Source: an uncultured Caldisericota bacterium (GTDB lineage Bacteria; Caldisericota; Caldisericia; B22-G15). From it: a stretch of 64,000 nt of DNA. Under the pieces are notes generated by a model. That model did no database searches and was not told where the DNA came from. It was given only the letters and a program-made list of their open reading frames with translations. Positions 539-64,000 of the stretch are shown piece by piece (position 1 is the stretch's first letter; each line of letters opens with the position of its first letter). Position numbers and translations under genes: made by a program. The stretch lies in contig CAZXJJ010000003.1 of NCBI GenBank assembly GCA_964640995.1, forward strand, positions 198,829-262,828, in the 5' to 3' direction.

Positions 539-614
539 GGGCCGCTAGCTCAGTCGGTAGAGCACCGGCCTTTTAAGCCGGGTGTCGCAGGTTCGATTCC
601 TGCGCGGCTCACCA
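539..614 (+). tRNA. tRNA-Lys (anticodon UUU)
   Basis: Cloverleaf: acceptor GGGCCGC/GCGGCUC, D-arm AGCUCAGUCGGUAGAGC, anticodon loop CUUUUAA, T-loop GGUUCGAUUCC, encoded CCA. Confidence 0.85.
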
Positions 615-618
615 TGGT

Positions 619-693
619 GGCCTCATCGTCTAACGGTTAGGACACCGCTCTTTCAAGGCGGCAATGGCGGTTCGATTCCGCCTGGGGCCACCA
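619..693 (+). tRNA. tRNA-Glu (anticodon UUC), 4 nt after tRNA-Lys
   Basis: Acceptor GGCCUCA/UGGGGCC, anticodon stem CCGCU/GGCGG with loop CUUUCAA, T-arm GGCGGUUCGAUUCCGCC, encoded CCA. Confidence 0.8.
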
Positions 694-3057: not shown

Positions 3058-3861
3058 ATGCAAGTAACAATGAAACAACTTCTTGAAGTTGGTGCACACT
3101 TCGGTCACCAAGTCAAAAGATGGAATCCCAAAATGAAAAAATTTATCTTTATGGAAAGAAATGGGATTCACATTTTTGATTTAAGACACACAATTGAAAC
3201 AATTGACAGAGCAACAAAACTTGTTTCTGATTTGATAAGACAAGGAGAGATTATTATTTTTGTTGGAACAAAAAAACAGGCACAGGAAGTTGTAAAAGAA
3301 GAGGCAGAAAGATGCGGAATGTATTATGTAAATGAAAGATGGGTTGGAGGACTCTTAACAAATTTCTATGAAATAAGAAAAAGAATAGATAGATTGGAAG
3401 AAATGATAAGAATGGAAGAAAGGGGTGATACACAAAAATTTTCTTATAAAGAACTAAAAGAGTTCAAAAAAGAAAAAGATAAACTCATGAAACTTTTTGG
3501 AGGGCTCAGAGGAATTCCAAAAATTCCAAAAGTCATATTTGTAGCAGATACAAAAAAGGATGTTAATGCTATAACCGAGGCAAGAAAAGTAAAATCTTAT
3601 GTTATTGCAATAGTTGATACTAATTGCGACCCAGACCTTGCTGATATACCAATTCCATCAAATGATGATGCAATAAGAGCAATAAAATTAATCACATCAG
3701 CAATTGCAGATGCTGTAATTGAAGGAAAAGAAGGAAAAGTTATTGAAATTCCTCGCGAAGAGGAAAAAGTTGAAGAACTCTTCTTAACAAGTGAAGAAGA
3801 GATTGAAGAGTTCATGAAAGAAGGAATAGATAAGAATGAACTTGAAGAAAAGGAGGATTAA
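3058..3861 (+). CDS. rpsB: 30S ribosomal protein S2
   Basis: 267 aa; LLEVGAHFGHQ..RWNPKM signature near the N-terminus; acidic C-terminal tail. Confidence 0.95.
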   Translation: MQVTMKQLLEVGAHFGHQVKRWNPKMKKFIFMERNGIHIFDLRHTIETIDRATKLVSDLIRQGEIIIFVGTKKQAQEVVKEEAERCGMYYVNERWVGGLLTNFYEIRKRIDRLEEMIRMEERGDTQKFSYKELKEFKKEKDKLMKLFGGLRGIPKIPKVIFVADTKKDVNAITEARKVKSYVIAIVDTNCDPDLADIPIPSNDDAIRAIKLITSAIADAVIEGKEGKVIEIPREEEKVEELFLTSEEEIEEFMKEGIDKNELEEKED

Positions 3862-3864
3862 TAT

Positions 3865-4461
3865 ATGGCAAATATGGAGCTTATTAAAGAGTTAAGAGAA
3901 AAAACTGGTGCAAGTATCTCTTATTGTAAAGAAGCACTTGAGGCAACTCAAGGAGATGTTGAGAAAGCGATAGAGTATCTTAGAAAAAAGGGACTTGCAC
4001 AGGCAGAGAAGAAAGCAGGAAGAGAAACAAGACAGGGAATAATTCATTCATATATCCATCTTGGTGGAAGAATTGGCGTAATGATAGAACTAAATTGTGA
4101 AACAGATTTTGTTGCAAGAACAGAAGATTTTAAAAAACTTGCAAATGAACTCTGTCTTCAAATTGCCTTTGATTCGCCAAAATATATTTCAAGAGAAGAT
4201 ATACCACAAGGGATAATTGAAAAGGAAAAAGAAATTATAAGAGAGCAACTTAAAGATATGAATAAACCATCTCAAGTTATTGAAAAAATAGTTGAGGGAA
4301 AACTTGAAGATTTTTATAAAAGAGTTTGTCTTCTAGAACTTCCTTATATAAGAGATGATAAAAGAAAAGTAATTGATATTGTAAAAGATTCAATTGCTAA
4401 ACTTGGAGAAAATATAACAATAAAAAGGTTTGTAAGATTTGAGGTTGGTGAAAAAGAATAG
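3865..4461 (+). CDS. tsf: elongation factor Ts (short ~198-aa form)
   Basis: N-terminal IKELRE.TGA.. .CK.AL motif; directly follows rpsB; short form as in Thermus/Thermotoga-type EF-Ts. Confidence 0.9.
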   Translation: MANMELIKELREKTGASISYCKEALEATQGDVEKAIEYLRKKGLAQAEKKAGRETRQGIIHSYIHLGGRIGVMIELNCETDFVARTEDFKKLANELCLQIAFDSPKYISREDIPQGIIEKEKEIIREQLKDMNKPSQVIEKIVEGKLEDFYKRVCLLELPYIRDDKRKVIDIVKDSIAKLGENITIKRFVRFEVGEKE

Positions 4462-5175
4462 ATGGAATATAAGCGAATACTCTTAAAAATTTCAGGTGAG
4501 GCTTTAAAAGGAAATAAAGAAGAAGAAGAAGAGTATGATATAGATTTTATTAAGGACCTCTGTCTCCAAATTAAAAAAGTCAAGGAGATAGGGGTCCAAG
4601 TTTCAATTGTTATTGGTGGCGGAAATATCTGGAGAGGAACTCTTGGCGAAAATCTTGGAATAGATAGAGCAACATCTGATTATATCGGAATGATTGCAAC
4701 AATAATGAATGCACTTCTTATTCAATCAATTCTTGAAAAGATGGGTCTTGAGACAAGAGTTCAATCTGCTTTAACTTTAACTGAAGTTTGTGAACCATAT
4801 ATAAGAAGAAGAGCAGTAAGACATCTTGAAAAAGGAAGAATTGTAATTTTTGCAGCAGGAACTGGAAACCCTTATTTTACAACAGATACAGCAGCAGCAC
4901 TTAGAGCATCAGAGATTGGGGCAGATGTTATTTTGAAAGGAACAAGTGTTGATGGAGTATACTCTTCAGATCCAAAAATAGACAAAGATGCAAAACTATT
5001 TAAATCTATAACATATACAGAATTTTTAATAAAAAATTTGAGAGCGCTCGACCCAACAGCAATATCTCTTTCAAGAGAAACAAATATTCCAGTTATAGTT
5101 TTTAATATTAAGAAAAAAGATGGTATTATTAAAGCAATATTAGGAGAGGAAGGAACAGTTATAAAGGGAGGATAA
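4462..5175 (+). CDS. pyrH: UMP kinase
   Basis: 237 aa; [10 protein letters not shown] and GGGNIWRG motifs. Confidence 0.9.
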
Positions 5176-54542: not shown

Positions 54543-54617
54543 TGGTAGCGCCACGGGGAATCGAACCCCGATCTGAGGATTGAGAGCCCTCCGAACTGAC
54601 CATTGTTCTATGGCGCC
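54543..54617 (-). tRNA. tRNA-Glu (anticodon CUC)
   Basis: Minus-strand cloverleaf: acceptor GGCGCCA/UGGCGCU, anticodon stem GAGGG/UCCUC with loop CUCUCAA, T-arm CGGGGUUCGAUUCCCCG, CCA encoded. Confidence 0.8.
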
Positions 54618-56357: not shown

Positions 56358-57635
56358 CTAACCTGATTTAACTATTGGGATCTCTTCCCACCTTGTTGTA
56401 TAATTTTTTGATCTGTTGAGTTGTCTCATCTGAAATGGTTTTGATATTCCACAAGAAAGTGGTTTTATTGTTTCTCTTCCAAATTTTTTATTTATATTGT
56501 CAATCGCTTTCATTAAAATTTCATCTTTACTTCCTTTGTAAATTGAATCAAAAAAGAAAAATTGACCCTCTTCTTCAGGTATTAAACCTTGTAAAATAAC
56601 ACCTGCTTTTTTATATAAAATTCCACTCTTGTAGATTTTTTTAAGTTCCTGAATTCCGGCTTCAATCATCTCACTTGTATTTGCTGTTGGTCTTGGAAAA
56701 TAGTATGATGATATCTTAAAATATTTTTCTCCCTTTTTAAATGGATTACTCATTAAAAAAACTGAGATGATTGATGAAAGTTGTCTTCCTTTTCTTAATT
56801 TTTCTGATGCAATTGTTATAAAAGATGAGATTGCCTCTTTAAGGTCTTTAAAATCTGTGAGATCTTTTCCAAAAGACCTTGATGTTGAAATTGATTTTTT
56901 AGTTTTCTCTTCAAACTCCATATCAATACATGGAATTCCGTTGAGTTCTAAAAGAACTCTTAAACCAAATGTTTTAAGATGTTTTTTTACCCAATCATAT
57001 GGAAGGTATTTGTAATCATAAGCTGTTTTTATATCATTTTTCTTTAAAAACTCTTCAAATCTTGCACCAATCCCCCAAACATCTCTTATTTCAAATTTTT
57101 TAAGAAACTCATCTATGTCTTTTCTATCGAGAAGATTAAATGTACCAGAACCTCCTTTGTCTTTTTTTGCTAACTTTGTTGCAATTTTTGCAAGAGTTTT
57201 TGTTTCACCTACTCCAATTGAAATTGGTATTCCAGTCCACTTTAAAACTCTATCTCTTATTCTTTTAATATACTCATCAATATTATGGTATTTAAATCTA
57301 TCAAAAGAGATGAATGCTTCATCAATTGAATATATCTCAACATCAGGACACAAGGTTTTTATTGTTTCCATAACTCTTCTTGACATATCTCCGTATAGAG
57401 TGAAATTTGAAGATAGAAGTTCTATATTATATTTTTTAACTAAATCTTCATATTGAAAAATTGGTGCACCCATTGGAATACCCAATTCTTTAACCTCATT
57501 TGACCTTGAAATAACACAACCATCATTGTTTGACAAAACAACAACAGGTTTCCCCTTTAATTTTGGATTAAAAAATCTTTCGCATGATACATAAAAATTA
57601 TCACAATCAACTAGAGCAAAAACTTTCCTCTTCAT
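56358..57635 (-). CDS. Y-family DNA polymerase (UmuC/DinB-like)
   Basis: 425 aa; N-terminal ALVDCDNFYVSCE palm motif. Confidence 0.8.
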   Translation of the reverse strand: MKRKVFALVDCDNFYVSCERFFNPKLKGKPVVVLSNNDGCVISRSNEVKELGIPMGAPIFQYEDLVKKYNIELLSSNFTLYGDMSRRVMETIKTLCPDVEIYSIDEAFISFDRFKYHNIDEYIKRIRDRVLKWTGIPISIGVGETKTLAKIATKLAKKDKGGSGTFNLLDRKDIDEFLKKFEIRDVWGIGARFEEFLKKNDIKTAYDYKYLPYDWVKKHLKTFGLRVLLELNGIPCIDMEFEEKTKKSISTSRSFGKDLTDFKDLKEAISSFITIASEKLRKGRQLSSIISVFLMSNPFKKGEKYFKISSYYFPRPTANTSEMIEAGIQELKKIYKSGILYKKAGVILQGLIPEEEGQFFFFDSIYKGSKDEILMKAIDNINKKFGRETIKPLSCGISKPFQMRQLNRSKNYTTRWEEIPIVKSG

Positions 57636-58043
57636 TTATAAAATTTTATGAATAACATAGGTCACAACACCCCAAATCTCGCACTCCATTCCTTCTTTTA
57701 TCTCAATAGGATCAAAGTCTGAATTTTCAGGAAATAGATATAGTTTTCCATTTTTCTTTCTTATTCTTTTAAGCACAAATTCTCCATCAACATTTGCAAT
57801 AACAATTTTTCCTTCTTTTGGCTCAAGCGCTCTATCAACAATTAATATATCTCCATCTCTTATGTTTGCATTTATCATTGAATTTCCTGAAACTCTAACA
57901 AAAAAGGTTGCTTGAGGATGTTTTATAACAAGGTCATTAAGATCTAGTGTTTTTTCAATAAAATCATCAGCAGGTGATGGAAAACCAGCAGACACTTTGT
58001 TTGAATAAAGTGGAAGTTTTAATTTTTTCTTTTTTCTTCTCAT
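57636..58043 (-). CDS. UmuD/LexA-like S24 peptidase domain protein
   Basis: 135 aa; GNSM catalytic Ser and downstream Lys (VLKRIRKK) of S24 self-cleaving family; immediately upstream of the Y-family polymerase gene. Confidence 0.7.
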   Translation of the reverse strand: MRRKKKKLKLPLYSNKVSAGFPSPADDFIEKTLDLNDLVIKHPQATFFVRVSGNSMINANIRDGDILIVDRALEPKEGKIVIANVDGEFVLKRIRKKNGKLYLFPENSDFDPIEIKEGMECEIWGVVTYVIHKIL

Positions 58044-58119: not shown

Positions 58120-58300
58120 GTAAAATTATTTTGGTCAGGTGTAGGGAAGAGGGTGAAAATCCCTCGCTGCCCCGCAACTGTGAGTGGGTATTGATCTAAT
58201 CCTTAAGCCACTGGGAAACTGGGAAGGCTTAAAGAAAAGTTACAGCACCCACAAGCCAGGAGACCTGCCTGATCAAATTTTACCTTCCGCCTTCGCGGGA
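58120..58300 (+). ncRNA. cobalamin (adenosylcobalamin) riboswitch
   Basis: Core GGGAAGAGGGTGAAAATCCCTCGCTGCCCCGCAACTGTGAG and B12 box AGCCAGGAGACCTGCC (58254-58269); 3' hairpin CCTTCCGCC-TTCG-CGGGAAGG abutting the AAGGAGG RBS of the downstream gene. Confidence 0.8.
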
Positions 58301-58314
58301 AGGAAAGGAGGAGT

Positions 58315-59649
58315 ATGATGAAAAAATTTTTAAAAATCTCACTTTTATCAATTCTTTTATTTGTTTTATTATTTCCTACATTTTTCCATCCCCAAAAAAA
58401 TATTTTCTCATTTAGTGTAAATTTTTCTTTTAAGATCAATTCAAATCTTTTTCAATTAAATGAAAATACCTTCCAATTCACACAAAACCCAATTGTTAAA
58501 AATGGAAAAACCTTTGTTCCTGTTAGAGATTTCCTTAATGCTCTTGAAATAGAATATAAATGGGTTGATTCAGAAAAAAGCATAAACTTTGAGTATGATG
58601 CAAAGAAAGTTAAAATCTATTTAAAAGAGAATTTTTACACAATCAATGACTCAAAAAGAAATTTTAAATTTAGGCCATTTATTTTTAAAGATTTAACTTA
58701 TGTTTCTGTAAGAGATTTAGGAGAAATTTTCAATTTAAATGTTATTTGGAATGAAAAAGAGAAAAAAGTTACTCTTTCAGGAAATATATATCCCAAAATT
58801 ACAGTTAAAGATGATTTAAACAATGTTGTTACTTTTTATGAAAAACCAAAAAGGATTGTCTCTCTTGCACCATCAAATACAGAAATTTTGTTTTCTTTGG
58901 GATTAAATGATGAAATAGTTGGTGTTACTGAGTTCTGTGATTATCCAACTGAAGCCAAAAAGAAAGAGAAAATTGGTGGTTTTATAAATCCAAATCTAGA
59001 AAAAATTTACTCCCTTAAACCAGATTTAGTTTTAGGAATTAGGGGCAATCCAATTGATCTATTCATGAATCTTAAAAAATTAAAAATAAAATCACTTGCT
59101 TTTGACCCAAAAAATGTTGATGAACTATTTAAATTAATTTTAACAATAGGAAAGGTTGTTGATAAAAGAGATGAAGCAAGAAATCTTGTTGAAGTTCTTT
59201 CTGAAAAAAGAATGAAAATCATCGAAGAAGCGAGAAAGTTCAAAAAGAAAAGAGTTTATGTAGAGATTTGGAATAGTCCTTATATGTCTGTTGGTAAAAA
59301 TACTTATATTAATGATTTAATTGAGGGGGTCGGAGGAATAAATATCGCAAGCAAAGCAACTGGAGATTGGCCAATTCTTTCACAAGAGTTCATAATAAAT
59401 GAAAATCCAGAAGTTATTATAATTGCTTATATGGGGCAAACAATAGATGATGTTCTAAAAAGATCTGGATGGGAAAAAATTGATGCTGTTAAAAATAGAA
59501 GGATTTATATATTTGAAAATCAAGACCTCATCTTTAGATTAGGACCTAGAATAATTGATGGTATGGAGGAACTTTTTAGGTTGATTCATAAAGATGAACT
59601 ATCAAAATTTTCTGAGGAGACGAATGTCTCCTCCCCTCTAATCAGATGA
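58315..59649 (+). CDS. BtuF/FhuD-type (cluster A) cobalamin/siderophore ABC substrate-binding protein with N-terminal copper-amine-oxidase-N-like domain
   Basis: 444 aa; signal peptide without lipobox; residues about 60-160 resemble the C-terminal domains of the 2227-aa protein (NGKTFVPVRDFLNALE..); C-terminal about 280 aa periplasmic binding fold. Confidence 0.7.
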   Translation: MMKKFLKISLLSILLFVLLFPTFFHPQKNIFSFSVNFSFKINSNLFQLNENTFQFTQNPIVKNGKTFVPVRDFLNALEIEYKWVDSEKSINFEYDAKKVKIYLKENFYTINDSKRNFKFRPFIFKDLTYVSVRDLGEIFNLNVIWNEKEKKVTLSGNIYPKITVKDDLNNVVTFYEKPKRIVSLAPSNTEILFSLGLNDEIVGVTEFCDYPTEAKKKEKIGGFINPNLEKIYSLKPDLVLGIRGNPIDLFMNLKKLKIKSLAFDPKNVDELFKLILTIGKVVDKRDEARNLVEVLSEKRMKIIEEARKFKKKRVYVEIWNSPYMSVGKNTYINDLIEGVGGINIASKATGDWPILSQEFIINENPEVIIIAYMGQTIDDVLKRSGWEKIDAVKNRRIYIFENQDLIFRLGPRIIDGMEELFRLIHKDELSKFSEETNVSSPLIR

Positions 59650-60623
59650 AGAAAAATTTTTTTATATTAACAATAGTAATTTTACTTTTTATCTCTCTTT
59701 TTTTATCTTTATCATTTGGTGCTAAAAGATATTCATTTTATGAGGTTATAAAATTTATCTTCAATCTTAAAAATGCAGATGAATTATTTATAAAAATAAG
59801 AATTCCAAGGGTTTTCTCCTCGTTTCTTGTTGGTGCATCTCTTTCAATTGCAGGACTTCTATCTCAAACTCTATTTTTAAATCCACTTGCAGATCCATTT
59901 TTGTTTGGTATTTCTTCTGGTGCAAATTTTTTTGTAACCTTATCACTTTTTTTAGGTTTTGATATGATATTTAAATATTCACTTTCATTTTTCTCTTTTC
60001 TTGGTGCACTTTTTTCTGTTTCGATGATTTACCTTATAAGTAGAATCAAAGGGAAAATCACTCCACTGAATTTACTTCTTTCTGGAATTGCTATAAATTA
60101 TCTTTTCTCTTCTCTTTCAACCTTTCTTGTTATATGGGGAAGGGATGTTTTAAATAAATCTGTCTTTTGGTCTTTAACAGGTTTCTCAACTGCTGATATG
60201 AATAAATTTCTTTTTTTATTTTTTATATTTATTCCAGCTTTAATAATCTCTATTTTCATAAGTTTTAAACTTGATGTTTACTCTTTGGGGGAAGACCAAG
60301 CAAAAACTCTTGGAATAAATACAAACTCATTAAAAACTATAACACTTGTCTTAATTTCAATTCTAACAGGGGTTAGTGTTTATGTTTCTGGAATTATAGG
60401 TTTTATAGGTCTTATGGTGCCAAATATTTTAAGAGAGATTTTTGGTTTAAAACACTTAAAACAAATTTTACTTTCAGTGCTTTTTGGTGGATTTTTATTG
60501 GTTCTTTCAGATTTATCTGGAAGAGCAGTGTTTTATCCAACAGAAATTCCTGTTTCAACAATAACTTCTTTTTTAGGTGTTCCATTCTTTTTGTATGTTT
60601 TATGGAAAGAGAAGGTATTTTAA
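59646..60623 (+). CDS. btuC: FecCD/BtuC-family ABC permease
   Basis: 325 aa, about 9-10 TM helices, FecCD-type. Confidence 0.8.
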   Translation: MKKNFFILTIVILLFISLFLSLSFGAKRYSFYEVIKFIFNLKNADELFIKIRIPRVFSSFLVGASLSIAGLLSQTLFLNPLADPFLFGISSGANFFVTLSLFLGFDMIFKYSLSFFSFLGALFSVSMIYLISRIKGKITPLNLLLSGIAINYLFSSLSTFLVIWGRDVLNKSVFWSLTGFSTADMNKFLFLFFIFIPALIISIFISFKLDVYSLGEDQAKTLGINTNSLKTITLVLISILTGVSVYVSGIIGFIGLMVPNILREIFGLKHLKQILLSVLFGGFLLVLSDLSGRAVFYPTEIPVSTITSFLGVPFFLYVLWKEKVF

Positions 60624-61357
60624 TGAATAGAAATTATCTTGAAATAAAAGATGTTTCTTTTTTCTATAAAGATAGAGAGATTTTAAAAAATATAAGTTTT
60701 TGTATCGAAAAAGGTGATAGTTTAACAATTTTTGGTCCAAATGGTAGTGGAAAAACAACACTTTTAAAAATTTTAATTGGACTTTTAAAGCCACAAAAAG
60801 GAGGGGTTTATTTTAAGGGTATTGATATATTTAAAATAAATGAAAGGGATAGAGGAAAAATTTTTTCTTATGTTCCACAAAAGGTAAATATTAATTTTCC
60901 ACTAAAAACTTTTGATTTTCTTTTAACAGGTAGAGCACCTTATATAAATGGATTTGTAAAAAAAGAAGATAAAGATATTGTTTTAAATTGGATGGAAAAG
61001 TTTAACATAATTCATCTAAGAGAGATTAATTTTCAACTTTTATCTGAGGGAGAAAAACAACTTTTAACATTAATTAGAACATTAATTCAGGAAACAGAAA
61101 TAATTGTTCTCGATGAACCATTAAATCACCTTGATTTAAAATATAAAATAAAAATTTTAAAATTATTACAAAAGATAAAACTCTCAGGCAAAACGGTTAT
61201 ATCTGTTTTTCATGAAATAGATTCAATAAAATTTTTATCTGATAAAGTTGTCTTTCTTAAAAATGGAGAAATAGAAAAATTTGGTGAAGTTGAAAAATTA
61301 ATAAAAAAAGAAGAGATTATCAATCTTTTTGAAGAAAACATACCATTTCTAATTTAA
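60602..61357 (+). CDS. btuD: ABC transporter ATP-binding protein (BtuD/FepC type)
   Basis: 251 aa; Walker A GPNGSGKTT, LSEGEKQ signature. Confidence 0.8.
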   Translation: MEREGILMNRNYLEIKDVSFFYKDREILKNISFCIEKGDSLTIFGPNGSGKTTLLKILIGLLKPQKGGVYFKGIDIFKINERDRGKIFSYVPQKVNINFPLKTFDFLLTGRAPYINGFVKKEDKDIVLNWMEKFNIIHLREINFQLLSEGEKQLLTLIRTLIQETEIIVLDEPLNHLDLKYKIKILKLLQKIKLSGKTVISVFHEIDSIKFLSDKVVFLKNGEIEKFGEVEKLIKKEEIINLFEENIPFLI

Positions 61358-61418
61358 TGTTATAATTTTGTATCAACATCAAAGAAAGATGTTATAATTA
61401 ATAAAATCCCAGAAGGAG

Positions 61419-62513
61419 GTGGTATTAATGATTAAAATATCTGTTATTGGTGCAGGAAATGGAGGTCAAGCTTTATGTGCATATCTTTCTATGAAAGGTT
61501 TTGACACCTCTTTGTATAATAGAAGCAGATGGAGAATAGAACCGATAATTGAGAGCAAAAAAATAAAAGTTGAGGGTGAAGTAAAAGGAATTTCAGAAAT
61601 TTCATTTGCAACAACAGATCTTGAAGAGGCTATAAAAGGGAGAAAACTCATTATGGTTGTTGTTCCAGCATTTGCTCACAGAGAAATCGCCGAAAGAATT
61701 GCCCCATTTGTTGAAGACGGTCAAATAATTTTATTAAATCCAGGAAGAACAGGTGGTGCTCTTGAATTTAAAAATGTTTTTAGATTAAAAGGAGTTAAAA
61801 AAGAAACTCTTGTTGCTGAGGCACAAACTTTTATTTTTGCATCAAGAATGTCAAATCCAGGAGTAGTTAAAATTTTTAGAATAAAAAATGCCGTGCCAAT
61901 CTCTGCAATTCCTGCGAAAAGAAATGATGAACTTAAAGAGATTATGAGAGAGGTTATGCCAGAGTTTGAGGTTGTACCAAACACAATTTACACAAGTTTC
62001 AATAATATAGGTGCTGTTTTTCATCCAGCAACTTTAATTCTTAATGCTGCAAGAATCGAATCAACAGCAGGAAAATTTGAATTTTATCTCGAAGGAATCA
62101 CAATTTCAGTTGCAAAAGTACTTGAAAAGGTTGATGAAGAAAGGTGTCTTGTTATGAAAAAATTTGGAGTCGAGCCCCTTACTTCTCTTAATTGGTTAAA
62201 ATACGCTTATGATGTAACTGGAAAAAATCTTTATGAGGCAATTCATAACAATAGTGGTTATCAAGGAATTCTTGCCCCTCCAAGTATTGATAATAGATAC
62301 ATAACTGAAGATGTTCCAATGAGTTTAGTTCCAATCTCCTCATTTGGTAAAGAGTTTGGAATTAAAACAGATACGATTGATTCAATAATAACACTTTCAA
62401 ATATAATGATGAATGAAAACTATTTTCAAACTGGAAGAACAGTTGAATCTTTAGGTCTTAAGGGAAAAACTCCAGAAGAGATTGTGAAATATCTGGAGGA
62501 GGGTGATGAATAA
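61419..62513 (+). CDS. opine dehydrogenase-family NAD(P)-dependent oxidoreductase
   Basis: 364 aa; Rossmann VIGAGNGG N-terminus and helical C-terminal domain resembling octopine/nopaline DH-type enzymes. Confidence 0.6.
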   Translation: MVLMIKISVIGAGNGGQALCAYLSMKGFDTSLYNRSRWRIEPIIESKKIKVEGEVKGISEISFATTDLEEAIKGRKLIMVVVPAFAHREIAERIAPFVEDGQIILLNPGRTGGALEFKNVFRLKGVKKETLVAEAQTFIFASRMSNPGVVKIFRIKNAVPISAIPAKRNDELKEIMREVMPEFEVVPNTIYTSFNNIGAVFHPATLILNAARIESTAGKFEFYLEGITISVAKVLEKVDEERCLVMKKFGVEPLTSLNWLKYAYDVTGKNLYEAIHNNSGYQGILAPPSIDNRYITEDVPMSLVPISSFGKEFGIKTDTIDSIITLSNIMMNENYFQTGRTVESLGLKGKTPEEIVKYLEEGDE

Positions 62514-64000
62514 AAAAATAGTTGGTGCAGCAATTGAAAACGATATACATGTTGCAGGACTTCTCAATTTTTTGAATCTTGCAAAAAAAGAGGGTTTTGA
62601 AATTCACTATCTTGGTGGCGCAGTTCCAATTGAAAAACTTATAGGTGCAATAATTGAAGTTGACCCAGAAATTGTTGCAATAAGTTATAGATTGGGAGAA
62701 GAGCCATTAAAAAATCTTTTAAATGAATTTGTTGAAAAATCAAAAAAATTTAAAAATAAAAAAATAAAATTTGTTTTTGGTGGAACAATTGAAACAGGAA
62801 AAGTTGCAAGAGCTTATACCATTTTTGAAAGGGTTTTTGATGGAAGTGAAGAAATTGAGGAGGTTTTAAATTTTTTAAGGGGAAGAGCAATAAATATAAA
62901 AGAGAAAGATTATCCTCAAACTTTATGGGAAAGAGTGGAATTTAAAAAACCTTATCCACTCATAAGACATCACATTGGTCTTCAAACTATGGATGAAACA
63001 ATAGAAGAAATTAAAAAACTATCTGAAAGCAAACTCCTCGATATAATTTCTATTGCACCAGATCAAAATTGTCAATGTTATTTTTTTGAAAAAGAGAAGA
63101 TGGATGAAAAATTATCTGGTGCTGGTGGAGCGCCAATAAGAACAGAGGAAGATTTTAAAAAACTATATGAAGCATCAAGAAGAGGAAATTATCCTTTAAT
63201 GAGATGTTATTCTGGAACAAAAAACATTGTAAAATTTTCAAAACTTCTTAAAGAAACAATTAATAATGCATGGGCTGCAATTCCAATTTTTTGGTATTCA
63301 GAACTTGATAAGCGAAGTGACAGAGAACTTCTTTCTGCAATTGAAGAAAATATGGAAGGAATAAGTTGGAATGCTCAAAACAGTGTTCCTGTTGAAGTGA
63401 ATGACTCTCATCAATGGGAATTAAGAAATGCACATGATACTCTTGCAGTAGCAGATTCATATCTTGTTGCTTACATTGCAAAAAAACTTGGAGTTAAAAA
63501 CTATATTCAACAATATATGTTAAATTCTCCACCTAATCTTTCACCAAAAATGGATATAGCAAAAAGTTTAGCAAGAAAAGAGCTGGTTGAATCTCTTCGA
63601 GATGAAAATTTTAATGTTTATACAATGATTCGAACAGGCCTTCTTTCTTATCCATCAGACCCATTTCAAGCAATGGGTCAACTTGTATCTTCTATGTTTT
63701 ATGGCTCATATTTAAAACCAGATATTATTCATGTCGTTGCTTACACTGAAGCGATAAAGAGAGCAACATCAAAAGAAATTATTGAAAGCACAAAGATGGT
63801 AAAAAGAGCATATATTCTTGCTGATTCTGGTCTTCCAGACTTTTATCAAGATAGAGAAATTAAAAATAGAGTTTTGGAGTTAAAAGATGAAGCAATGTAT
63901 CTTATTGAGAAAATAAAAGAATTAGGTAAAGGAAAAAAAGAACCACTTTTAGACCCAGAAACACTTTTCAGTGCAGTTAAAACTGGAATTTTAGATGCAC
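62506..64000 (+). CDS. single-chain B12-binding (GlmS/MutS-like) + GlmE-like (methylaspartate-mutase E family) protein; C-terminus beyond window
   Basis: ATG 62506 overlaps the upstream stop by 8 nt; DxHxxG cobalamin motif (ENDIHVAGL) near the N-terminus, Rossmann-like about 130 aa, then a large domain whose visible end (IEKIKELGKGK..ETLFSAVKTGILDA) resembles, from memory, the C-terminal region of glutamate mutase E subunit. Confidence 0.55.
   Translation, partial: MNKKIVGAAIENDIHVAGLLNFLNLAKKEGFEIHYLGGAVPIEKLIGAIIEVDPEIVAISYRLGEEPLKNLLNEFVEKSKKFKNKKIKFVFGGTIETGKVARAYTIFERVFDGSEEIEEVLNFLRGRAINIKEKDYPQTLWERVEFKKPYPLIRHHIGLQTMDETIEEIKKLSESKLLDIISIAPDQNCQCYFFEKEKMDEKLSGAGGAPIRTEEDFKKLYEASRRGNYPLMRCYSGTKNIVKFSKLLKETINNAWAAIPIFWYSELDKRSDRELLSAIEENMEGISWNAQNSVPVEVNDSHQWELRNAHDTLAVADSYLVAYIAKKLGVKNYIQQYMLNSPPNLSPKMDIAKSLARKELVESLRDENFNVYTMIRTGLLSYPSDPFQAMGQLVSSMFYGSYLKPDIIHVVAYTEAIKRATSKEIIESTKMVKRAYILADSGLPDFYQDREIKNRVLELKDEAMYLIEKIKELGKGKKEPLLDPETLFSAVKTGILDA

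Follow-up and report, generated by a model that had tools for sequence, protein, structure and literature searches.

The 64-kb stretch of DNA analysed here, referred to as a whole as the window, comes from contig CAZXJJ010000003.1 of an uncultured Caldisericota bacterium; it has a G+C content of 29.6%, and its closest named relatives are metagenome-assembled genomes of Caldisericia/Caldisericota. Toward its right end a cobalamin riboswitch is followed by five co-directional open reading frames (ORFs) on the + strand, tightly spaced or overlapping, which encode a BtuF-like substrate-binding protein, a BtuC-like permease, a BtuD-like ABC ATPase, an opine dehydrogenase (DH), and a mutase of the adenosylcobalamin (AdoCbl) type. 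An earlier note made from the letters of this DNA had described these features, and every one of them was found in place when the ORF list and Pfam domains were compared with it. The note had also read the five genes as one riboswitch-controlled operon that ended in a fused glutamate mutase, and on these two points our analysis led elsewhere. We favor, with some reserve, a reading in which the locus holds two functionally related, separately controlled units, the second of which would use B12 to make an N-(1-carboxyethyl) derivative of a branched acidic amino acid.

Acidic opine dehydrogenase

The DH gene occupies 61428-62513 on the + strand. Its product matched PF02317 with 156 bits and the solved structure of the enzyme CENDH/ArODH (1bg6) with an E value of 6e-75 over residues 7-353, at 38% identity; the catalytic residues H202, R292, and D297 (1BG6 numbering) were all aligned and conserved, so that the oxidoreductase of the opine dehydrogenase family noticed earlier is a genuine opine dehydrogenase. 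The ORF listing starts this gene at GTG 61419; because that codon lies within the GGAGG Shine-Dalgarno sequence, ATG 61428 is probably the true start.

Six opine dehydrogenases from hot-spring metagenomes have been described as a new subclass with an "unprecedented" preference for negatively charged L-amino acids together with pyruvate, and reciprocal double mutants showed that Arg111 and Gly198 (ArODH numbering) set this preference, with Arg35 marking the use of NADPH (PMC10787698). The DH of the window was 55% identical to one of these enzymes, mODH-48, and 45% identical to mODH-45 and mODH-47; it carried R110 (at ArODH position 111), G198, and N34-R35, and its motif NRRGHRD was identical to that of all three. 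It thus has the same Arg111/Gly198 and Arg35 as mODH-45/47/48/49/55/582 (Telek et al. 2024, PMC10787698), whereas ArODH/CENDH (PDB 1BG6), with which it has the catalytic triad in common, has Ala111/Asn198 and prefers hydrophobic amino acids. The full signature, N34 R35 R(111) G198, was present in 69 of 74 aligned DH sequences, nearly all of which are linked to a mutase gene; among the 70 mutase-linked sequences R111 was invariant (70/70), and G198 and R35 were each found in 69. These signatures place the enzyme in the acidic-amino-acid (mODH) subclass, members of which condense pyruvate with L-aspartate-type amino acids.

In the published assays, mODH-48 converted L-Asp (76%) and L-cysteate (71%) and very little L-Glu (2%), and mODH-582 converted L-Glu to 96% (PMC10787698). 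That study treats the enzymes as stand-alone biocatalysts; cobalamin and gene clusters go unmentioned in it, and 3-methylaspartate is absent from its substrate tables. We found the counterpart of mODH-48 (P0271, 98% identical to a sequence of mODH-48 derived by optical character recognition) on contig JAHDPN010000245.1 (locus L087, 2256-4959), where its gene overlaps by 8 nt that of a 540-aa member of the same mutase family as in the window and has an AsnB-like gene upstream. Mesotoga prima has the same arrangement.

Fused AdoCbl-type mutase

The mutase gene (62506-64000, + strand) is cut by the end of the window at codon 498 of 541, and the 43 missing codons are present in the gene for P0001, a 541-aa protein that is 100% identical. 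The protein begins MNKKIVGAAIENDIHVAG and consists of a B12-binding Rossmann domain (residues ~1-125), in which the DxHxxG motif is formed by D13, H15, and G18 (DIHVAG), and a GlmE-like TIM barrel (residues ~150-541). The first domain passed the PF02310 threshold (42.2 bits versus 32.1), as expected from the earlier note, and H15 was present in 38 of 42 diverse family members. For the remainder, matches to PF06368 (Met_asp_mut_E) stayed under the gathering threshold of 26.6 bits, at 21.3 bits for the fragment in the window and 24.7 bits for the full protein, and the match to the GlmE equivalog TIGR01503 reached 15.3 bits versus a cutoff of 390. Searches of the PDB with phmmer and with the family profile matched the B12 domain only and found no GlmE chain. 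Because the Met_asp_mut_E score fell short, the E-like assignment rests on comparison of folds. An AlphaFold2 model, made with 40 family members in the alignment, was confident (pLDDT 88.7, pTM 0.83), and its best structural matches in the PDB were GlmE, which ranked first, OraE, and KamD. When a diverse 42-sequence profile was used, hhalign aligned residues ~117-533 of the mutase with GlmE 32-441 at a probability of 86-92% over ~385-421 columns; the diversity of the profile was needed, as a shallow 40-sequence alignment gave a partial match of 4% probability only. By both comparisons the barrel has the GlmE-type TIM-barrel fold.

These results settle in part what the earlier note had claimed for the C-terminal region and how it had proposed to check it. 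Of the three profile searches it suggested, those with PF02310 and PF02317 passed and that with PF06368 remained below threshold; the absence of a significant Met_asp_mut_E match, which the note had named as counting against its assignment, is formally a borderline outcome and is overridden by the structural evidence. The GlmE-like barrel fold and the S-then-E order in a single chain therefore stand, and membership in the glutamate mutase family in the strict sense does not. The view that the protein is an AdoCbl radical isomerase of the GlmE lineage, with S fused to an E-like barrel, is well supported by the model and the profile alignment.

Such a fusion is by no means rare. More than 2000 matches to the family were present among the candidates scored, falling into 584 clusters at 50% identity, and a collection with one genome per species held 559 matching stretches. 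Members carry public names such as "methionine synthase", "cobalamin B12-binding domain protein", "hypothetical", and "MCM cobalamin-binding subunit". Some relatives are natural fusions of the B12-plus-barrel unit with MutL/GlmL (PF13941, 256-277 bits), and one relative with a C-terminal ATP-grasp domain passed the gathering threshold of PF06368 over profile positions 21-383. Among the variant architectures were the MutL/GlmL fusions P0145 and P0148 (1226-1266 aa), a fusion to an ATP-grasp of the GSH-synthetase/RimK type (P0130, 863 aa), a weakly matched Peptidase_M15_3 fusion (P0139, 732 aa), and a 610-630-aa form in which an additional ~60 residues separate the B12 domain from the barrel (P0169, P0184, and P0212, 620-632 aa; Rikenellaceae and others); the relatives with variant architectures are publicly named only "hypothetical" or "TIGR01319 family".

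The mutase was 17% identical to GlmE. To compare substrate-binding positions, we took the glmS-glmL-glmE-methylaspartase cluster of E. coli O157 as a reference and aligned it to the solved Clostridium cochlearium enzyme, in which we verified R66 (in QPRAG), R100 (in YTRQ), R149 (in ARHG), E171 (in NEGGG), and Y181 (in VPY). We take R66, R100, and R149 to be the arginine claw that binds glutamate and E171 to be the contact for the substrate amino group. In the mutase family these arginines are replaced by H156 (kept in 39 of 42 members), Q190 (38 of 42), and Y235 (40 of 42), respectively, and hhalign, in both global and local mode, and an independent MAFFT alignment agreed on all three replacements. 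E171 was aligned with A255 by hhalign and with the invariant D268 by MAFFT. The scaffold motifs do align (G68/G158, D89/D179, D96/D186, P145/P230, and G151-T152/G237-T238, GlmE residue first), and the family has an invariant charged set of its own, R143, R154, R/K233, D268, R270, E297, R307, and D311. Because the three GlmE arginines are replaced, free glutamate would not be expected to bind in the manner of GlmE. We conclude from the residue comparison that the mutase belongs to a distinct, unnamed family, and is not a glutamate mutase in the strict sense.

Conservation of the dehydrogenase-mutase pair

In the window the DH and mutase genes share 8 nt at the DH stop codon and the mutase ATG (ATGAATAA), as had been reported before. 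The pairing that drew attention in the earlier note is real and uncharacterised. The DH gene lay directly 5' of the mutase gene in 72 of 82 mutase loci, the ten exceptions being mostly truncated contigs, plus loci of the Youngiibacter type, and the DH stop codon overlapped the start of the mutase gene or lay no more than 10 nt from it in 67 of 69 loci, with ATGA-type overlaps of 4 nt the commonest. The pair was found in Caldisericota, Thermotogota, Dictyoglomota, Bacteroidales, Bacillota, and WOR-3, and locus L089 adds Atribacterota. On this gene arrangement, the conserved unit consists of DH and mutase in an obligate, translationally coupled partnership. Homologs of methylaspartase, of GlmL, and of GlmE proper were absent from the window and from the 85 family loci (L001-L085) when these were searched by tblastn; the earlier note had seen no methylaspartase gene either.

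Only one other neighbor recurred broadly, an ATP-grasp ligase of the Ddl family, found in 33 loci. Its gene follows the pair in Caldisericota, Dictyoglomota, and most Thermotogota, and precedes it in Mesoaciditoga and Atribacterota. The ligase in L001 failed the curated Ddl cutoffs (NF002378, 174.7 bits versus 243; TIGR01205, 153.8 versus 245.65), a genuine Ddl in L069 passed (450 versus 262), and the Ddl-like ligase had no match to the PF01820 N-domain. Having failed all curated Ddl cutoffs, the ligase was rejected as a housekeeping Ddl and is a paralog. L001 is a syntenic relative of our locus, with proteins 86-91% identical to those of the window and the same genes upstream, and this synteny makes it almost certain that the Ddl-like ligase gene comes next in the window operon, a short way beyond position 64000.

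In seven loci (Kosmotogaceae and WOR-3) the pair was accompanied by an AsnB-like amidoligase gene. In Hathewaya limosa (L046, 406-12926) and Sporomusa aerivorans (L047, 626-13385) it lies inside a surface-polysaccharide cluster that encodes a GFO/MocA oxidoreductase, a hexapeptide acyltransferase, a DegT aminotransferase, a Wzx-type flippase, an extra ATP-grasp protein, and an AsnB-like protein, with a weak, sub-threshold Wzy-like match and a sub-threshold match to a VimE-like deacetylase; this content suggests that in these two hosts the product decorates a diamino-uronic-acid sugar. Genes for aspartate kinase, aspartate-semialdehyde dehydrogenase, homoserine kinase, and threonine synthase adjoin the pair in Mesotoga prima (L088, 226-4270) and in an Atribacterota locus (L089, 9700-13913). 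Genes of the aspartate pathway stood beside the module in only two to three loci, too few to be used as evidence.

Cobalamin riboswitch and control of the importer

The cobalamin riboswitch aptamer (58120-58286, + strand) matched the full RF00174 model (positions 1-189) with 103.5 bits, against a gathering threshold of 31.5, and an E value of 8e-25, and its B12 box at 58254-58269 reads AGCCAGGAGACCTGCC; the element recognized in the earlier note is thus a member of this family. Homologous cobalamin riboswitches lie 5' of btuF in the relative loci L001, L006, and L008. Between aptamer and gene, a candidate expression-platform hairpin at 58277-58319 (+ strand) pairs CCUUCC with GGAGG, the btuF Shine-Dalgarno sequence (58307-58311), and has no U-tract; a terminator scan found none between the aptamer and btuF. 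Folding of the RNA from 58250 to 58335 placed the Shine-Dalgarno sequence in this stem, with a z-score of −1.5 that is weak by itself. Because the hairpin pairs the Shine-Dalgarno sequence and lacks a U-tract, these results suggest that the platform sequesters the btuF ribosome-binding site and controls btuF at translation.

The three importer genes follow on the + strand. The BtuF-like protein (58315-59649; PF01497, 133.8 bits over residues 181-400) has an additional N-terminal domain of the Cu_amine_oxidN1 type (PF07833, 83.5 bits over residues 48-153), an arrangement ahead of Peripla_BP_2 that is also kept in L001; a GH18 protein in L069 begins with a domain of this type as well. The gene for the BtuC-like, FecCD-family permease (59646-60623; PF01032, 296.5 bits) overlaps btuF by 4 nt, and that for the BtuD-like ABC ATPase (PF00005, 103 bits) occupies 60602-61357. 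All the expected Pfam domains were present. The top NCBIfam matches of the binding protein and the permease were BtuF (121.9 bits) and BtuC (196.8 bits), under the equivalog cutoffs of 234 and 334, and those of the ATPase were heme, FecE, and corrinoid ATPase families; it is the riboswitch that points to corrinoids as the substrate, and the importer of the earlier note is real and probably of the B12 type. Among the loci examined, linkage of btuFCD to the DH-mutase pair was limited to Caldisericota.

The spacer between btuD and DH (61358-61427, + strand) contains, in addition to the DH Shine-Dalgarno sequence GGAGG at 61414-61418, two perfect extended −10 elements (TGTTATAAT) at 61358 and 61390. 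The sequence TGNTATAAT occurs only eight times on the + strand of the window, and two of the eight are in this spacer; an extended −10 element is kept in the same spacer of L001, L006, and L007. From these consensus matches the spacer is probably an independent promoter of the enzyme operon. In L006 and L007 there is a hairpin after btuD, and in L008 and L009 a gene for an LPG_synthase_TM protein lies on the opposite strand (3822-4865) between btuD and DH. An IS200-like transposase gene lies directly 5' of the riboswitch in L006 (669-1535). Given the inserted gene and the transposase, the junction between importer and enzyme genes is a rearrangement-prone boundary.

How far does the riboswitch reach? 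The model put forward in the earlier note, in which all five genes form one riboswitch operon and synthesis of the DH and mutase, like that of the importer, is limited to times of B12 scarcity, agrees with the common direction of the genes, with a gap of only 61-70 nt before DH in which no intrinsic terminator is predicted, and with the synteny of btuFCD and the DH-mutase pair in several Caldisericota (L001, L006, and L007). It conflicts with the platform, which sequesters the Shine-Dalgarno sequence of btuF only, with the two conserved −10 boxes, with the hairpin after btuD in L006 and L007, and with the opposite-strand gene that parts the two units in L008 and L009. Moreover, Rfam scans of the window and relative loci found the cobalamin riboswitch 5' of btuF only, and neither it nor btuFCD was found with the DH-mutase pair in any of the other phyla scanned. 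B12 riboswitches are OFF-type switches, and one that repressed a B12-dependent enzyme when its cofactor was available would make little physiological sense. We consider the five-gene operon improbable. Given the conserved −10 boxes, the intervening gene, and the position of the riboswitch, DH and mutase would be transcribed separately, and most likely the riboswitch governs the importer alone and the enzyme operon beside it has its own promoter; under importer-only control, there is no longer the paradox that a B12 enzyme is repressed by an OFF-switch while its cofactor is present. This would correct a tempting over-reading, that of a B12 riboswitch governing a B12-dependent enzyme.

c-di-AMP riboswitches upstream of the pair

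In 14 loci from Clostridia a riboswitch for cyclic di-AMP (c-di-AMP; ydaO class, RF00379, 89-105 bits) lies directly 5' of the DH-mutase pair and ends 13-240 nt before the DH start. These are located in L063 (4595-4769), L065 (4666-4812), L066 (4580-4752), L067 (4655-4783), L068 (3998-4169), L069 (4607-4774), L072 (4647-4779), L073 (4676-4806), L074 (4653-4778), L077 (4615-4780), L079 (4663-4790), L082 (4658-4782), L083 (539-666), and L085 (4642-4774). L071 has one by motif, and all 15 motif matches in ~1 Mb of loci fell at this position. The hosts are Tissierellia, Thermosediminibacterales, Thermovenabulum, [Clostridium] ultunense, Schnuerera, Sporanaerobacter, and Thermovorax. Scans for RF00379 were negative in the window and in the loci examined from Thermotogota, Dictyoglomota, Bacteroidales, and WOR-3. 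The genes 3' of the pair in the c-di-AMP loci were not conserved, and the two genes therefore make up a self-sufficient regulated unit. An asparaginase gene precedes the riboswitch in L065.

Riboswitches of the ydaO class control transporters of K+ and amino acids as well as genes for osmotic shock and for remodelling of the cell wall (PMC7266159). By analogy with these targets, control of the pair by such a switch in Clostridia makes it probable that the product has a role in osmotic or K+ homeostasis, or in that of the cell envelope. In one WOR-3 locus (L078, 4412-5989) the DH has a PTS_EIIA_2 domain (96.6 bits) fused to its N terminus, which hints at regulation of this DH by a phosphorelay of the PTS-Ntr type; EIIA-Ntr domains are tied to K+ homeostasis.

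Proposed pathway and alternatives

We propose the following for the two units. In the first (58120-61357), the riboswitch would turn off the BtuFCD-type importer when B12 is plentiful, probably at initiation of btuF translation. The second, an operon with its own promoter that runs from ~61358 past the end of the window, would produce an NAD(P)H-dependent opine synthase of the acidic, aspartate type and, coupled to it, the single-chain mutase. The mutase would carry out a 1,2 shift of the carbon skeleton of the glutamate mutase type, interconverting glutamyl and 3-methylaspartyl skeletons, and the opine synthase, discriminating against glutamate, would capture the aspartate-type product by reductive condensation with pyruvate and NADPH. 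The predicted product is N-(1-D-carboxyethyl)-3-methyl-L-aspartate (C8H13NO6), a tricarboxylate. The equilibrium of glutamate mutase favors glutamate, and capture by the opine synthase would pull the unfavorable reaction, the role that methylaspartase has in fermenters. The tricarboxylate might be used free or be ligated as an amide by a partner that differs with the lineage: the Ddl-like ATP-grasp ligase, the AsnB-like amidoligase, or a glycan-decorating ATP-grasp enzyme.

Several observations weigh against this proposal. Among the substrates tried on any mODH, 3-methylaspartate is not included, and discrimination against Glu is not universal, since other mODHs, mODH-582 for example, take Glu as well as Asp (PMC10787698). 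The replacement of GlmE R66, R100, and R149 by H156, Q190, and Y235 means that the mutase substrate may be something else, and tblastn detected no GlmL reactivase near the pair in the window or the loci, where there was likewise no homolog of a PduO-type adenosyltransferase. The promoter elements in the spacer are consensus matches only, and with no terminator predicted between btuD and DH in the window, read-through from the riboswitch-controlled promoter may occur. The downstream ligase is expected from relatives, the window ending before it, and the physiological role is drawn from the regulon of a riboswitch that is absent from the lineage of the window itself.

Of the alternatives, the one nearest to our proposal reverses the order of the steps: the opine synthase would act first, and the mutase would rearrange the opine itself, or another acidic metabolite, as an "opine mutase", for which we know of no precedent among AdoCbl enzymes. 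Since the arginine claw is lost, a different invariant Arg set (R143, R154, R270, R307, and R/K233) is present, and E171, which in GlmE holds the free amino group, aligns by hhalign with Ala255, a bulkier, N-substituted, and more anionic substrate would fit such a site. Efficient use of L-Glu by several mODHs (96% for mODH-582) and the position of DH ahead of the mutase gene in most loci agree with this order. Against it, mODH-48, which is the closest characterised relative and is linked to a mutase, barely uses Glu (2%); by chemical reasoning, N-(carboxyethyl)-aspartate offers no obvious migration of the glutamate mutase type; and in the MAFFT alignment E171 is paired with the invariant Asp268, so that contact with the amino group may persist. 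On balance we regard this order as unlikely, although it deserves more weight than the other alternatives to the chemistry. The flow might also run backward, with DH cleaving an exogenous acidic opine oxidatively to pyruvate and 3-methylaspartate and the mutase converting the latter to glutamate. Opine dehydrogenases are reversible, their founding member, CENDH of Arthrobacter, came from an isolate that used opines, and the mutase equilibrium lies toward glutamate. Such a catabolic role is nevertheless quite improbable, as no conserved opine transporter or regulator lies beside the pair, the genes that recur around it encode ATP-dependent ligases or belong to glycan biosynthesis, a c-di-AMP riboswitch would be an atypical control for nutrient catabolism, and the NADPH-type signature N34-R35 points to biosynthesis (PMC10787698).

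Two further alternatives concern the identity of the mutase, and we give both very little credence. If it were a true glutamate mutase (EC 5.4.99.1) that happens to be fused, it would serve glutamate fermentation or the supply of 3-methylaspartate; the rank of GlmE as best structural match, the weak PF06368 and TIGR01503 matches, and the relatives fused to GlmL-like domains lean this way. Yet identity to GlmE is only 17%, every curated cutoff is missed, sequence searches of the PDB with the protein and with the family profile both fail to find GlmE, and the claw is not conserved; unlike the E. coli O157 cluster, none of the loci has methylaspartase, GlmL, or mesaconase genes. On the grounds of cutoffs, claw, and gene context, canonical glutamate fermentation was rejected. 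Like GlmS/GlmE of Clostridium cochlearium/tetanomorphum (PDB 1CCW, 1CB7, 1I9C, and 6H9E), the mutase has a base-off/His-on DxHxxG Rossmann domain, and the fusion of its relatives to a GlmL/MutL component is a further likeness; it differs in being one S-then-E chain where glutamate mutase is an E2S2 heterotetramer, and in having an opine synthase and a ligase as partners where glutamate mutase has an ammonia-lyase. An aminomutase dependent on pyridoxal 5'-phosphate (PLP), of the OraSE/KamDE type, would shift an amino group rather than a carbon fragment, and OraE is among the best PDB sequence matches of the B12 domain. However, the Lys of the OraE motif VIDIK, which we take to be the PLP anchor on the Rossmann domain, aligned in the phmmer alignment to 3kow with Ala26 of the mutase, with no conserved Lys nearby; this alanine was invariant among the 40 close members, and 31 of the 42 diverse members share it. 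In addition, the only sub-threshold barrel-family match is Met_asp_mut_E, which is not an aminomutase. A PLP aminomutase was rejected for want of the anchoring Lys. D-Ornithine 4,5-aminomutase (OraSE) and D-lysine 5,6-aminomutase (KamDE) also differ from the mutase, which has no sign of PLP, in domain order and subunit organisation.

Our proposed pathway resembles two known systems. The PylB/PylC/PylD route to pyrrolysine joins a radical mutase that acts on the carbon skeleton of an amino acid, an ATP-grasp ligase of the Ddl family, and a dehydrogenase that uses NAD(P), the same logical trio as mutase, ligase, and DH here, although the likeness is one of analogy only. CntM, an Octopine_DH-family enzyme in the synthesis of the opine-type metallophores staphylopine and pseudopaline, finishes a polycarboxylate amino-acid product by reductive condensation with pyruvate or 2-oxoglutarate; its partners are CntL/CntK and a dedicated exporter and importer, not a B12 mutase, and no nicotianamine-synthase-like gene was seen among the annotated neighbors of the pair.

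Literature searches found no paper that connects opine dehydrogenases to AdoCbl mutases, gives the fused family a name, or describes the predicted product, and none on glutamate mutase together with an opine DH or ATP-grasp enzyme, on PF06368 or "glutamate mutase-like" proteins, or on carboxyethyl-aspartate. A paper on B12 in Thermotogales does not discuss the mutase family in its main text. We likewise found no description of the pair as a member of the c-di-AMP regulon, the original ydaO gene-association papers lying beyond the search. More tentatively than the pathway itself, we suggest that the pair represents an unrecognised, widespread B12-dependent pathway to a class of branched tricarboxylate opines, that the mutase may act on the opine, and that the product serves both as an osmolyte or K+ counter-ion and as a building block for ligases. 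If so, a mutase acting on the opine itself would be the first AdoCbl "opine mutase", anaerobic Clostridia and thermophiles would use the product as an anionic osmolyte or as a counter-ion for K+ under the control of c-di-AMP, and dedicated ligases would also place it on peptides or surface glycans.

To our knowledge the AdoCbl-dependent carbon-skeleton mutases form a very small club, each new member of which has opened new radical enzymology. The family described here is large and has been given no functional name; its S and E parts are naturally joined in a single chain, its active site is remodelled, and its partner is obligate and translationally coupled. The association also gives a physiological context to the aspartate-specific opine dehydrogenases, predicts their true substrate, and would add a biosynthetic enzyme pair to the c-di-AMP riboswitch regulon. 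The hypothesis is open to experiment: soluble mODH-48 has already been produced, and cultured hosts of the pair include Mesotoga prima, Petrotoga mobilis, and Tepidanaerobacter acetatoxydans.

Neighboring genes

Divergent from the riboswitch, at 56358-58043 on the − strand, lies a two-gene cassette encoding proteins of 135 and 425 aa. Their counterparts in L001 match Peptidase_S24 (LexA/UmuD-like) and IMS/DUF4113 (Y-family polymerase), respectively, and by these syntenic matches the cassette is a putative UmuDC-like pair for SOS mutagenesis. The window also contains three tRNA genes, at 539-611 (+), 619-690 (+), and 54546-54617 (−), and the Thermosediminibacter locus L068 contains a fragment of a group II intron at 262-332; neither the tRNA genes nor the intron fragment is related to the DH-mutase pair.

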